DNA of 26,889 bases from a virus (IMGVR_UViG_2537562020_000004); one strand, 5' to 3'; shown: positions 2,186 through 22,844, numbered from the stretch's first letter. Notes: a model not told the origin generated them from the sequence alone. Program-made: numbers and translations.

Positions 2186-2546
2186 CAATAAAACCACATA
2201 AAAAACATATAATTATAATAAAAACAATTAGTTAATTTAATTTTTAATGCAGTGAATTGCAATATTCTGCAACCTCCGCCGCCACTTTGCCGCCACTTAA
2301 AGCTTTATACCACACAGACTTTAGTATACCCGAGTGAAACGCTAACACATGAGGTAGTTGGAAAATTTCCGTATATGTTGTAATATTGATACGCATTATA
2401 TGATTTTTACCTGATATAATGTAATTATTAGCTTCAAAATTATTTTTGCACGAATCAGGTATTACCAAGTAGTTGTCAGTTTTTAAAAACCCAACATCCT
2501 AAAATTAGCATTGTTTTTTAACCACAAAACATCCACGGAGAAGAAC

Positions 2547-3356
2547 GTGTCAAAAAAGGATACAATCCAGATTATCGATATCAGGATGCAGAGACCAATC
2601 ATAGCAAGAATAGAAGAAGAAAATTTAAATTTGACATTGCAAATGTCAGATAAAGCCACATTATCTGGTGCGACAGTTAGTTTTTTCACCCCAAATAACG
2701 TTTCTATATTCTTATCCTCAGCAAAAAAAGAGCTCTCAAAATCCAATTCTATATATAAAAGTCTTTTTGGAAAAATACACAAAACCAAACATAAAAACTT
2801 TAAAATTTCCGACAAAGACCTGCCGAGACTCTATAATTACTTTGAATCAATTCAGACGGCCATTATTTCTATGTATACTGCAATTGAGTCTTTTGCAAAT
2901 ATATGCATACCACATGATTATGTTTATGAAAAAAACAATGCCAAGGGAATCAAAGAATCCTATAGCAAAGAGCTAATTGAGCGATATATACCAACAAGTG
3001 AAAAAATAGATAAAATCCTACCGTCTATTTTAAATTGTGATTCGCCTAAAGGTTCAAAACTATGGCAAGATTTTAAAAGCCTTGAGTCACTTAGAAATGA
3101 CATAATTCACCCCAAGACAACAAAGAAAAACACAGAAACAAAAGAAGACTCATCTTTTTTATGCATTTTACTATCAGATGACTTTATAAAAAAAGTTTCC
3201 TGTGGATTTGATTTGGTATCTTATTTTTGCAAACAAGACACTACTCATAGTCTTTTCCCAATGGGTTTCGGTGAAATTGAACTTAAACCTGTCCCAATTA
3301 AAGCCGGTGACTTTGAAAAAGTTGATGATCATGATGAAATAGAATTACCATCATAA
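2547..3356 (+). CDS. Cargo protein with a HEPN-like RNxxxH motif (putative RNase / abortive-infection type); start uncertain
   Basis: The open frame from 2511 (TTG) is 281 aa. GTG 2547 is preferred because GGAG lies 6 nt upstream. ATG 2586 is also possible. R195-N-D-I-I-H200 (nt 3093-3110) lies in a helical C-terminal half (ESIQTAIISMYTAIESFAN ... LESLRNDIIHPK). The gene is very AT-rich. Confidence 0.7.
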   Translation: MSKKDTIQIIDIRMQRPIIARIEEENLNLTLQMSDKATLSGATVSFFTPNNVSIFLSSAKKELSKSNSIYKSLFGKIHKTKHKNFKISDKDLPRLYNYFESIQTAIISMYTAIESFANICIPHDYVYEKNNAKGIKESYSKELIERYIPTSEKIDKILPSILNCDSPKGSKLWQDFKSLESLRNDIIHPKTTKKNTETKEDSSFLCILLSDDFIKKVSCGFDLVSYFCKQDTTHSLFPMGFGEIELKPVPIKAGDFEKVDDHDEIELPS

Positions 3357-3357
3357 C

Positions 3358-3404
3358 AAAAAAACACAAACCATAAAGACGGCCATAGGTGGTCTTTATG
3401 GTTT
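3358..3404. terminator. Hairpin terminator between the convergent cargo gene and int (good T-tract for the int strand)
   Basis: 13-bp perfect stem AAACCATAAAGAC / GTCTTTATGGTTT (3368-3380 / 3392-3404) with an 11-nt loop. The minus strand continues GTGTTTTTTTG. Confidence 0.65.
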
Positions 3405-3472
3405 ACAATAGACGCAGCCGTTATTAAATTTAAATCCAACAGCGTTAAAATAAACTAACAATATACGCATAA

Positions 3473-4513
3473 TTAATCTTTCCATTTAAAACCATTACAT
3501 AATGTTAAAGGATTAAATGTTACAGCCTCCTCAAGATGATCCGGGGAGAAATGTGCATACTTCATAGTTTCACGAATATTCGCATGACCGAGTATACGTT
3601 GCAGCACAAGAATATTCCCGCCATTCATCATAAAATGAGCGCCGAAGGTATGACGCAGAACGTGTGTCTTTTGCCCTTCCGTCAGTTCGATATCCGTTAG
3701 TTTGAGCATCTTTTTAAACTCCTGATAGCAAGGCTTAAACATCTTTCCCTGCCTTTCAGATAATTCGTCATACAACCATTTTGGGATCGGAACGGTTCGA
3801 TTCTTTTTCCCTTTCGTTTTGGTGAAGGTCAGTTTATGTGGCGAGAGCTGGGGACGTGTCAACCTCTCAGCCTCACCCCATCTAGCACCTGTTGCAAGAC
3901 AAATCTTAACAATCATGGTGAGGTCTTCTTTTCCGTATTGCTCGCATGCCTGAAACAATTTCGGAATTTGAGACAAAGTGAGCCAAGACATTTCTTTCTC
4001 GGCTTCCTTGAAAACACGGACTCCATCAAGTGGATTTGGTAAGCTCCACTCCCCTAGCCTTTTGAGCTCATTAAATACAGCCTCAAGATATTGTTGCTCA
4101 CGATTGACAGTTATCGGTTTAGCAATCCATTTTGCCGGGTCTTTATGATAGCCATTATCTATCTCCCCCCGAAGTCGGCGGTCACGGTAATGAGCCCAAT
4201 CTTTAGCAGTAAGGCGGGATGCAATAGGGTCACCAAGTCCATTACACACGATTTGAAGTTTAGCTAACCGCGACTTACTGGCGACCAGTGCCTGTCCGTG
4301 TAAATTATGCCAAAGCTGGATAATCTCACTTAAGCGTCGGCGGTCTTCTTTCTTGCCGAGCCACGGCTTATCCTCACTCTCACTTTTCGTAAATGCTTCG
4401 AATGCCTCGGCCTCACCTTTGGTATTGAATTGCCGACGTATACGCCGCCCTTCTCGACCATTTGGATAGAGCTCGCATAACCATTTGCCATTTTTTTGCT
4501 TACTTACAGTCAT
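3473..4513 (-). CDS. int: Tyrosine integrase, P2/186 family
   Basis: 346 aa. Catalytic-region motifs are ATGARWGEA, HVLRHTF and LGHANIRETMKYAHF. It is the first phage backbone gene, with its 3' end facing attL as in P2. Confidence 0.93.
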   Translation of the reverse strand: MTVSKQKNGKWLCELYPNGREGRRIRRQFNTKGEAEAFEAFTKSESEDKPWLGKKEDRRRLSEIIQLWHNLHGQALVASKSRLAKLQIVCNGLGDPIASRLTAKDWAHYRDRRLRGEIDNGYHKDPAKWIAKPITVNREQQYLEAVFNELKRLGEWSLPNPLDGVRVFKEAEKEMSWLTLSQIPKLFQACEQYGKEDLTMIVKICLATGARWGEAERLTRPQLSPHKLTFTKTKGKKNRTVPIPKWLYDELSERQGKMFKPCYQEFKKMLKLTDIELTEGQKTHVLRHTFGAHFMMNGGNILVLQRILGHANIRETMKYAHFSPDHLEEAVTFNPLTLCNGFKWKD

Positions 4514-4535
4514 AATGTCACCGAGGCAACTCTAA

Positions 4536-4874
4536 TTATTCCCAAAGTGCTGTTGCAGCATCCATTACAGGATCCAAAGGAATTTTTACGCCTGCATACT
4601 CCGGGCTATCTTTCCAAACAGTATCAATATTGCTCCCCTCAAGCTTTCCAGACTTTACTCCATCAATCGCAAAACCATTTAATGGGTATCGGTCATCTGT
4701 TGCTTTGTCGTACACAAAGGCATATTTACCGTTGACACAAGACACCGTAGCTTTTTCAAAAGTTAACGGCCAATCCTCACCAAACTTAGCGCCATCTAAA
4801 TCCTGTGTTTTTTCAGCGGCTGAGGCTCCAAAAGAAAGGGTAAGAAGCAGAGCTAAAAAGAGTTTACATTTCAT
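4536..4874 (-). CDS. Small secreted protein (DUF2511/YebY-like by memory), a moron in the cI-int operon
   Basis: The start is taken at MKCKLFLALLLTLSFGASA|AEK (ATG 4872-4874), with AAGGGA 8 nt upstream and 8 nt after the cI stop. It has a type-I signal peptide and a 112-aa precursor. The track start at 4946 overlaps cI and is unlikely. Confidence 0.7.
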   Translation of the reverse strand: MKCKLFLALLLTLSFGASAAEKTQDLDGAKFGEDWPLTFEKATVSCVNGKYAFVYDKATDDRYPLNGFAIDGVKSGKLEGSNIDTVWKDSPEYAGVKIPLDPVMDAATALWE

Positions 4875-21698: not shown

Positions 21699-21749
21699 TT
21701 AACAAAAGCATGCTAACTCTTGACAATTTGACAACTAGAGTGCACCCTA

Positions 21750-21777
21750 ACGCCAGTCAATAGAGTGCGACTGGCGT
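21750..21777. terminator. Hairpin between convergent S and the cargo gene (no clear T-tract)
   Basis: ACGCCAGTC-N10-GACTGGCGT, a 9-bp perfect stem. Confidence 0.35.
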
Positions 21778-21815
21778 CAAGGAAGATTTTAATCTTTCTT
21801 TAGTGGTTCGATTCC

Positions 21816-22691
21816 CTAGCCTCGTAAATATCGTTTAGTAAATTTCGTGTTTGGTCTGGATGATAGGATTTGTCTTTCTATTTCACTATCACAGTCTATA
21901 TAGTCTAGTGTATTAGCTTCTATAAGTTTGTTCACGTCAATATTTTTTGCATCGATTATGTTGGCATTTCTAAGGTTTGCATTGGTGTATTCCACTTTAT
22001 CCAAATCACACTCTCTGAGTACGCAACTTTTCATTTCCGCATTGGAAAAATCCCCACCATATAAATAGCAGCCTTCAAAAATAACACCGTTTAACTTTGA
22101 ATCCTGAGCTTTAATATTTTTTATTTTACACTTTATAAATTTTACGTTTTTCATTTTGCTCTTGCTAATATTTAATGCCTGGATTGTACATCCAGTGAAA
22201 GAACAGTCTCTTATGTTAGATTTTTCCATATTTAACCCAGATAGTTCTGAGGTTTTAAAGTGTAAGTATTTAATGGTAAAAAGGTCACCCAACTCCATTC
22301 TGGGTATGTCTATATTGAAGACACCTTTATTGTTGAGCTGTCTTATTATTTTTATTTTTTGTATTTTCAAATCAACATTAACGTGCTTAGCTAAGTTTCC
22401 CAAATCCTCAAGAAGTTCATTAATCGTTTCTTTGTTTTGTCTTCTGTATTCAAAGTAATAAAGGATGACACCTAATACAAAAAAATCCAAAATGGATGAA
22501 TTTGCATTTATTAGGAACCCAGACAGGAATGAATCATTGTAATTACCATAGTGTATAGAGGCAAGTGTTACGCCAAATGCATATAAAATAAAAATAATAA
22601 ACACGTGCTTCATTTTGCATAAGGATTGTATTATTGGTTTTATGGCATCAATTTTGTTCATTGCTGCAGCAGCGAAAGATTTAAAAGTCAT
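21816..22691 (-). CDS. Membrane-anchored pentapeptide-repeat protein (cargo at the S-V junction)
   Basis: 291 aa, very AT-rich. Two hydrophobic helices (~res 29-46 and 55-80), a charged linker, then ~20 consecutive pentapeptide repeats (res ~141-250: SNIRD CSFTG CTIQA LNISK ... ANLRN ANIID). Confidence 0.8.
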   Translation of the reverse strand: MTFKSFAAAAMNKIDAIKPIIQSLCKMKHVFIIFILYAFGVTLASIHYGNYNDSFLSGFLINANSSILDFFVLGVILYYFEYRRQNKETINELLEDLGNLAKHVNVDLKIQKIKIIRQLNNKGVFNIDIPRMELGDLFTIKYLHFKTSELSGLNMEKSNIRDCSFTGCTIQALNISKSKMKNVKFIKCKIKNIKAQDSKLNGVIFEGCYLYGGDFSNAEMKSCVLRECDLDKVEYTNANLRNANIIDAKNIDVNKLIEANTLDYIDCDSEIERQILSSRPNTKFTKRYLRG

Positions 22692-22729
22692 TCTATTTTT
22701 AATGCATTCAGATTAAATGGGATTGATGA

Positions 22730-22757
22730 TTTTTACGTGCCCAATGATGCGTGTCAA
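22730..22757 (-). promoter_or_regulatory. Candidate sigma-70 promoter for the pentapeptide-repeat gene
   Basis: The minus strand reads TTGACA (22757-22752), a 16-nt spacer, then TAAAAA(T) (22735-22730). It is ~35 nt upstream of ATG 22691. Confidence 0.4.
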
Positions 22758-22844
22758 TCAGATCTTTGAAAGTGTCTTGCTGTGTGAGCCCCTTTCCAAT
22801 CCCGAAGTTTTGTCTGCAATGAAAAGAAGCGGCATGCTTACATA

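Follow-up and report, generated by a model that had tools for sequence, protein, structure and literature searches.

The 26,889-nucleotide stretch of DNA analysed here (IMGVR_UViG_2537562020_000004; "the window" hereafter, meaning the whole stretch) contains the left part of a PSP3/186-type (Peduoviridae) prophage of Escherichia coli, an element of ~32.8 kb located between yfiB and rplS. Four junctions of its backbone, att–int, int–cI, cos–Q and S–V, each hold one credible open reading frame (ORF; at least 40 aa, antisense noise set aside). Comparison with relatives makes it very probable that these junctions are variable cargo slots of a PSP3-like prophage, being empty, filled with the same gene, or filled with unrelated and often defence-like genes elsewhere in the family. 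The sequence-only reading of this DNA had proposed cargo at these four sites, and this central claim was borne out. The four genes would then be accessory genes of the moron type, located where phages of the P2 family accept foreign DNA and exchange it. The cargo features, with their guanine-plus-cytosine (GC) contents where these were determined for the insert, are:

2304–3505, + strand: cargo module 1, 1202 bp, GC 0.315; gene at 2547–3356 (+), GTG start, 269 aa
4536–4874, − strand: cargo gene 2, DUF2511/YebY-like (Pfam, PDB match, PSP3 orf28)
11808–12940, − strand: cargo module 3, 1133 bp, GC ~0.376 over 11826–12940; gene at 11859–12863 (−), 334 aa
21653–22827, − strand: cargo module 4, 1175 bp, GC ~0.33, limits relative to PSP3; gene at 21816–22691 (−), 291 aa

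The window begins with the host genes yfiN–yfiB, followed by the left 24.7 kb of the prophage up to the window end. A near-identical locus is present in E. coli E1535 (NZ_CM180510.1; L001), where the element spans ~32.8 kb and terminates at rplS. The closest characterised phages are SEN1 and PSP3 (89–90% DNA identity over 74% of the query in megablast), with 186 next. GpA, portal, GPO and P2-family capsid proteins were identified from Pfam and from the RefSeq annotation of the E1535 locus, and the gene order int-cI / cII-A / cos / Q-P / O-L / lysis / R-S / V-H matches those of PSP3 and 186, in agreement with the collinear P2/186 backbone described from the sequence alone.

Insert limits were refined by alignment to relatives with empty junctions, including PSP3. 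Relative to PSP3, three modules are extra, at 2304–3505, 11808–12940 and 21653–22827, so the proposal that the insertions break conserved adjacencies holds, with these adjusted limits. In relatives at yfiB–rplS without cargo 1, the int 3' end is joined straight to window base 2303, and 2185–2303 is therefore conserved attP arm rather than cargo; at its other end, module 1 supplies the last ~11 codons of int. Module 3 has the stop codon of Q on one side and a terminator-like hairpin (11788–11802) on the other. Module 4 begins within the 3' end of S and stops 17 nt short of the V start codon. S and cargo 4 converge, and a 14-bp inverted repeat separating their stop codons (21745–21782; 86% complementary, with an exact 9-bp core) could be a bidirectional terminator. 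A search for direct or inverted repeats flanking the inserts found none. Transposon- or integron-like insertion was rejected on this ground and because the insert ends fall inside int and S; the absence of flanking repeats points instead to recombination in or near conserved flanks. The modules would thus be swapped by recombination with end points in or beside conserved flanking genes, and near-identical backbones would therefore come to bear differing cargo combinations.

The composition of the inserts was assessed by comparing the GC content of each with that of all same-length windows of the prophage backbone. The inserts at 2304–3505 (GC 0.315, z = −5.2), 11826–12940 (GC 0.376, z = −3.8) and 21699–22775 (GC 0.328, z = −4.8) stand out clearly, no equal-sized backbone window being as low in GC as any of the three (GC 0.32–0.38). 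The corresponding genes have GC contents of 0.319 (cargo 1), 0.376 (cargo 3) and 0.316 (cargo 4); the late genes lie at 0.53–0.62 and the int–cI region at about 0.45. The DUF2511 gene at 4536–4874 (GC 0.419, z = −2.1) is barely under int (0.447) and cI (0.452), and near the tumA region (about 0.40). The low-GC contrast claimed for all four sites is therefore sound for three inserts (z −3.8 to −5.2) and weak for DUF2511. The accompanying statement that the backbone is GC-rich from the A gene onward is only partly true, A itself having a GC content of 0.507 and the GC-rich block beginning at Q.

Variability of the junctions was examined in the 80 best matches fetched from IMG/VR around each of V, Q and int; these loci were not dereplicated, so that the occupancy fractions are rough, which counts against leaning heavily on them for the structural claim. 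At S–V, 48 of 75 loci are empty (75–86 bp, GC 0.52–0.63), and the other 27 are filled with 852–1820 bp of GC 0.32–0.42, representing at least 14 unrelated gene families, with some occupants matching the PADLOC candidate defence models PDC-S15, PDC-S31 and PDC-S59. Only 3 of the 69 complete E. coli genomes with close S/V relatives bear the S–V allele of the window; the remaining sites are empty or contain another pentapeptide-repeat allele, a HIT gene with a hypothetical gene, or other genes. The distance from Q to cos is 165–186 bp in 63 of 80 loci, which are empty, and the 17 occupied loci comprise 7 with 384–492 bp, holding a small ORF of 74–103 aa, and 10 with 1.3–4.9 kb, containing DUF262/NsnA-PD-T4-2-like + HEPN, PLD-type and DndB-like genes. 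The cos-to-A distance, which corresponds to the classical TO hotspot, ranges from 0.6 to 4.4 kb among the relatives. At int–cI, most loci contain DUF2511, as alleles that are 48–100% identical; elsewhere cI abuts int, or the junction contains a transmembrane protein with a WYL-like C-terminal motif (read from sequence), a secreted protein of 130–150 aa, or a 168-aa protein read as PH + SHOCT, these alternative cargos all being AT-rich and co-oriented. The att–int junction of this lineage shows two states only, with 48 complete E. coli genomes empty at the yfiB site and 18 carrying cargo 1. Empty sites and unrelated cargo, as at a moron site, thus occur at S–V, cos–Q and int–cI, while att–int is either empty or occupied by cargo 1. 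The slots also assort independently, as indicated by vB_EcoM-613R3, in which the backbone is 96.8% identical, cargo 1 is missing, an additional gene is present in the TO region, cargo 3 is retained, and S–V contains a 53%-identical pentapeptide-repeat allele.

Cargo 1 is predicted to be a solo HEPN-type protein and a ribonuclease (RNase) of the Rx4H type. The motif R183-N-D-I-I-H188 is invariant across 10 sequences down to 29% identity, with E180, R183, N184 and H188 unchanged, and the protein displays the four-helix up-down HEPN fold, so that the RNxxxH reading made from the sequence passes both the alignment and the structure test. No match was found in the local Pfam copy, and the family profile gave nothing against PDB sequences up to E 10; the collection's precomputed label for the family is PF27216 YopA_C. 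The same reading had considered each cargo gene an orphan, which does not hold for cargo 1: a profile search yielded 1066 representative relatives of two architectures, a stand-alone form of ~265 aa and a form extended at the N-terminus by ~140–215 aa; no Pfam domains were found in the extensions. Homologues were located in Klebsiella at att–int, as in the window, in a P4-like satellite of Serratia at the delta–int defence hotspot (84% identical), in a Providencia lambdoid prophage at the Q–holin moron site, and in Morganella at the tail–int end of a lambdoid prophage. The Morganella homologue (L250, 7826–8605) lies ~1 kb from a RelA_SpoT-domain gene (weak Pfam match) at the prophage end, in what may be a small defence or toxin islet. 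A tblastn search of 50,697 deposited phage genomes did not detect cargo 1. The ratio of non-synonymous to synonymous substitution (dN/dS) is 0.03–0.07 with synonymous sites saturated, suggesting that the transfers are old. The lineage found in 18 complete E. coli genomes illustrates that a 1.2-kb gene can lie between int and the putative attP arm sites of a prophage.

Cargo 3 is predicted to be a cytoplasmic gluzincin-like HExxH protein. H138-E139-x-x-H142 is invariant across 26 sequences down to 41% identity, as are the motifs HHExxHxHE and WSEY among its relatives, and the HExxH assignment survives the alignment test, with a zincin-type fold as the structural prediction. No protein-family match and no sequence link to a solved structure were found. 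Far from being an orphan, the family comprises 78 clusters and is present in about 2000 Salmonella data blocks; very many Salmonella prophages carry it at Q–cos, as the window does, and chromosomal islets of Shewanella and Kosakonia contain it as well. Its dN/dS is 0.24. An example of decay is provided by the Q–cos site of L086 (IMG/VR 2545824717_000003), where a frameshifted homologue is split into fragments of 113 aa and 154 aa.

Cargo 4 consists of two N-terminal hydrophobic, predicted transmembrane helices followed by a C-terminal pentapeptide-repeat domain (Pfam Pentapeptide_4, 68.9 bits), in keeping with the earlier description of a membrane pentapeptide-repeat protein. In E. coli, Klebsiella and Enterobacter alike, all examined members of the family lie at S–V and are encoded on the opposite strand; the family is therefore no orphan either, and it is retained at this junction over a divergence of 48–66% identity. 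Among the 50,697 deposited phage genomes, tblastn detected only the 53% allele in vB_EcoM-613R3. Qnr and MfpA are soluble DNA-mimic pentapeptide proteins of ~200 aa that protect gyrase; membership of cargo 4 in these families was rejected, given scores of 28–38 bits against cut-offs of 240–500 and the two predicted N-terminal transmembrane helices.

Cargo 2 is predicted to be a periplasmic YebY-like protein, based on a DUF2511 match (Pfam, 58.8 bits against a cut-off of 21), a match to the PDB entry of YebY (7n0j, E 3e-6), and a signal-peptide-like N-terminus, MKCKLFLALLLTLSFGASA, read from the sequence. It is equivalent to PSP3 orf28, co-oriented between cI and int. As a cargo site, int–cI is upheld by its variation among relatives; against it, DUF2511 is nearly fixed in the PSP3 clade, being present in most close relatives, and together with the weak GC contrast this raises the possibility of a gene integrated long ago instead of mobile cargo.

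The placement of the slots relative to transcription units offers a possible account of why they are tolerated. In the P2 and 186 maps, int ends the lysogenic transcript, Q is the last gene of the P–Q late operon, and a separate late operon begins at V, downstream of the one that ends with S. By analogy with this layout, three of the slots, located after int and ahead of the attP arm, after Q and ahead of the terminator beside cos, and between S and V, would be transcription-unit boundaries where insertion spares the phage operons. Transcription of cargo 1 and cargo 4 runs opposite to that of the adjacent phage operons. The DUF2511 gene lies within the cI–int operon and is therefore expected to be made in lysogens. 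Cargo 3 is co-oriented with Q and follows its stop codon ahead of the operon terminator, so that transcription of the late P–Q operon could extend into it.

The cargo is most likely expressed by the lysogen and used in competition of the prophage or its host against other phages, through abortive infection or superinfection exclusion. Cargo 1 would mediate abortive infection through RNA cleavage, the membrane protein (cargo 4) and the periplasmic protein (cargo 2) would cause exclusion at the envelope, and cargo 3 would cleave a target protein of the phage or the host; both the expression in the lysogen and these targets are what we infer from the predicted protein types. The chances of a defence role for the cargo are roughly even. 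So are those for the proposition that at least one of three cargos, the solo HEPN/YopA_C, gluzincin-like or membrane pentapeptide-repeat protein, is a new self-contained anti-phage system. If this is true, the prophage stacks several independent single-gene defences at separate slots, and the HEPN family is a cargo moving between hotspots in P2-type helpers, in P4-type satellites and in lambdoid phages.

Several results weigh against a defence role. No cargo protein convincingly matches any PADLOC model: with PADLOC-DB 2.0, cargo 1 gave weak matches only (RTasHEPN, E 1e-4; CARF_HEPN, E 8e-3), and the other cargo proteins gave nothing. Shuffled sequence yields promoter-like consensus matches at least as often. 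An extended −10 element, TGATATAAT, was seen by eye at 2412–2420 upstream of cargo 1, unscored by the scan; the suggestion that at least two cargo genes have their own sigma-70-like promoters is plausible, but it depends on matches that occur at chance frequency. A non-coding RNA partner (e.g. a type III antitoxin) was also considered and rejected, Rfam giving no match in the window. In favour of the preferred reading, the cargo genes are under purifying selection (dN/dS 0.03–0.24).

These observations have to be weighed against other possible roles. The cargo could consist of lysogenic-conversion or host-physiology genes, involved for example in copper handling, gyrase protection, or proteolysis of a host protein, which we regard as unlikely. 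YebY, a homologue of DUF2511, belongs to the copper-linked AZY operon (PMC8689200), P2 hotspots are known to bear toxins as well, such as cytolethal distending toxin (CDT; bioRxiv 10.1101/2024.10.15.618418), and cargo 3 is also found in chromosomal islets outside prophages. Cargo 4 does match the Qnr and MfpA models (28–38 bits), but these scores are far under the cut-offs of 240–500, and cargo 4 is membrane-anchored whereas Qnr and MfpA are soluble. The cargo of relatives at the same junctions is moreover often defence-like, and cargo 1 occurs in a P4 defence hotspot, both of which favour the defence role over one in host physiology.

Proteases and HEPN proteins can also serve as anti-defence factors, which raises the improbable alternative that at least one cargo serves the lytic cycle of the phage itself, for example in counter-defence or take-over. 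The position of cargo 3, oriented as Q and upstream of the hairpin at 11788–11802, would suit such a function, but cargo 1 and cargo 4 run against the neighbouring phage operons, and most relatives get through their cycle without cargo at these junctions; anti-defence genes were reported in only 28 P2 elements (PMC13586616). Least probable is that the inserts are neutral, hitch-hiking AT-rich DNA, silenced and decaying, and tolerated only through their position at operon ends. Their GC content of 0.32–0.38 is typical of xenogeneic DNA, cargo 3 is frameshifted in L086, and the evidence for promoters is weak. Neutral DNA is nevertheless difficult to reconcile with intact ORFs whose catalytic motifs are invariant across genera, with dN/dS of 0.03–0.24, with a pentapeptide-repeat family kept at S–V across 48–66% identity, and with the presence of cargo 3 in about 2000 Salmonella data blocks. 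Exchangeable accessory genes with a candidate role in phage competition thus remain the preferred reading of the four slots.

The surrounding features of the prophage, on which the junctions were anchored, are:

2172–2184, no strand: attL core AGTTAAGACGCTC, with an exact 13-bp repeat at L001 34964–34976 (attR)
2185–2303, no strand: conserved attP arm; two direct repeats of the CGCCAC type occupy 2276–2298
3473–4513, − strand: int (Pfam Int_N + Phage_integrase), with DNA similarity to PSP3 beginning at 3507
4883–5743, − strand: cI repressor, with two tandem Phage_CI_repr helix-turn-helix (HTH) domains and one CI_C domain (Pfam)
10105–10120, 10142–10324 and 10328–10561, + strand: LexA box, tumA-like gene and tumB/DinI-like gene, forming an SOS operon in the A-to-cos (TO) region
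11621–11639, + strand: cos, GGCGTGGCGGGGAAAGCAT, found by pattern match and aligned with PSP3 positions 1–19
12941–13987, − strand: portal gene Q (Pfam, RefSeq annotation)
21243–21698, + strand: tail completion gene S, with its 3' end from 21653 on being part of the swapped module
22845–23480, + strand: baseplate spike gene V (RefSeq annotation of the near-identical locus)

The attR copy of the 13-bp core overlaps the rplS stop codon, and E. coli genomes with an empty site align with the window no further than base 2184, after which prophage DNA begins. The attR side carries similar TGCCGCCA repeats, and the CGCCAC-type repeats are putative arm-type binding sites for Int. Upstream of the prophage, window positions 1–380 contain an IS1 end abutting a yfiR gene without its N-terminus, just upstream of dgcN (yfiN). 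YfiR is the periplasmic repressor of the diguanylate cyclase encoded by dgcN, and its truncation means that cyclic di-GMP (c-di-GMP) synthesis may be de-repressed in this strain.

A perfect LexA box (10105–10120) and a tumA/tumB-like arrangement equivalent to that annotated in PSP3 support the earlier observation that an SOS operon occupies the classical old/tin position between A and cos. The tum antirepressor gene of 186 is here split into two ORFs, one tumA-like (60 aa) and one tumB/DinI-like (77 aa). The 186-type 19-nt cos adjoins Q; the equivalent PSP3 positions 1–19 are annotated as cos and are identical to the cos of 186. RefSeq annotates a 61-aa hypothetical gene (11596–11781, −) that crosses the cos cleavage site. 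The stretch in which it lies is conserved with PSP3, rich in GC and non-coding, and this ORF is probably not a gene. Towards the window end (25337–26889), the tail-fibre gene H terminates at 26158 and shows a 285-bp rearrangement relative to E1535, consisting of a 192-bp duplication plus 93 new bases. The segment 26136–26242, which covers the new bases, shares 74% similarity with an inverted segment close to an invertase pseudogene (L001 27738–27844), and the rearrangement looks like a product of the tail-fibre inversion system. The Z/fun position of E1535 (between G and FI, L001 26966–28017) contains an inverted tail-fibre-assembly gene, a gp53-like fragment and a frameshifted recombinase, with no defence cargo.

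In comparison with PSP3 and 186, the prophage has the same gene order and the same cos sequence, and shares with them DUF2511 (orf28) between int and cI and the tumA/tumB SOS operon between A and cos. PSP3 also has the same 286-aa, two-HTH type of cI; the 186 CI, at ~190 aa, would hold only one HTH domain. PSP3 is empty at cos–Q (178 bp) and at S–V (68 bp) and has no gene past int on the att side, and the prophage of the window differs from it in three additional AT-rich modules and another int C-terminus.

With respect to the published P2 hotspots, the proposal that these sites lie beyond them was not sustained. The classical foreign-gene loci of P2 are the TO region (old/tin), Z/fun and orf30, as given in PMC3091744 (citing Nilsson and Haggard-Ljungquist) and PMC6823313. 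Rousset et al. 2022 mined the whole gpA–gpQ interval, including the Q side of cos (PMC9122126). S–V is the orf30 locus and cos–Q falls within gpA–gpQ. The att–int and int–primase sites are likewise described (PMC13586616, 2026): the share of defence systems at P2 hotspots is given there as 3% for int–att, 8% for int–primase and 16% downstream of GpL, and att–int cargo is noted as unusual but real. A third P2 hotspot has been placed between a tail gene and cI (bioRxiv 10.1101/2024.10.15.618418). The cargo accession numbers do not appear in the searched portion of the supplements of Rousset et al. 2022. The published hotspots resemble the slots of the window in that their cargo is AT-rich and rapidly swapped. 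They differ in that the TO side of cos is here without defence cargo, the cargo being on the Q side, and in that no cargo gene of the window corresponds to a recognised defence system. The slots are therefore not new, and neither a new kind of system nor a new kind of hotspot is revealed; what is new is the sub-site resolution, together with three cargo families missed by current defence models. Base-pair limits were obtained for four cargo slots within one small prophage, the published gpA–gpQ hotspot resolves into two sub-sites, one on either side of cos, and three conserved families under purifying selection, undetected by current defence models, are nominated as candidates in phage competition.

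Among individual systems, cargo 4 resembles HalA of Hailong, a membrane protein with pentapeptide repeats and its best NCBIfam match. The domain order is however reversed, the transmembrane helices of cargo 4 being N-terminal. Membership in Hailong was rejected, since cargo 4 reaches 42 bits with the HalA model, whose cut-off is 250, the similarity is confined to the repeats, and the slot holds no second gene, with no HalB nucleotidyltransferase nearby. For cargo 1, the hotspot of the P4-like satellite harbours a homologous gene between delta and int, whereas in the window the gene lies between int and attP of a helper-type phage; exchange between the two was not recent, as the proportion of synonymous differences (pS) is 0.73 (saturated). 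Its closest functional precedent, to which no sequence link was found, is HepS, the solo-HEPN abortive-infection protein of prophage Gifsy-1 (PMC13043305). Like cargo 1, HepS is a single HEPN-domain protein with an Rx4–6H motif, located alone in a prophage accessory slot; cargo 1 differs in its additional N-terminal beta region and acidic tail, and its 269 aa exceed the 250-aa limit applied to stand-alone homologues in the HepS study (PMC13043305).

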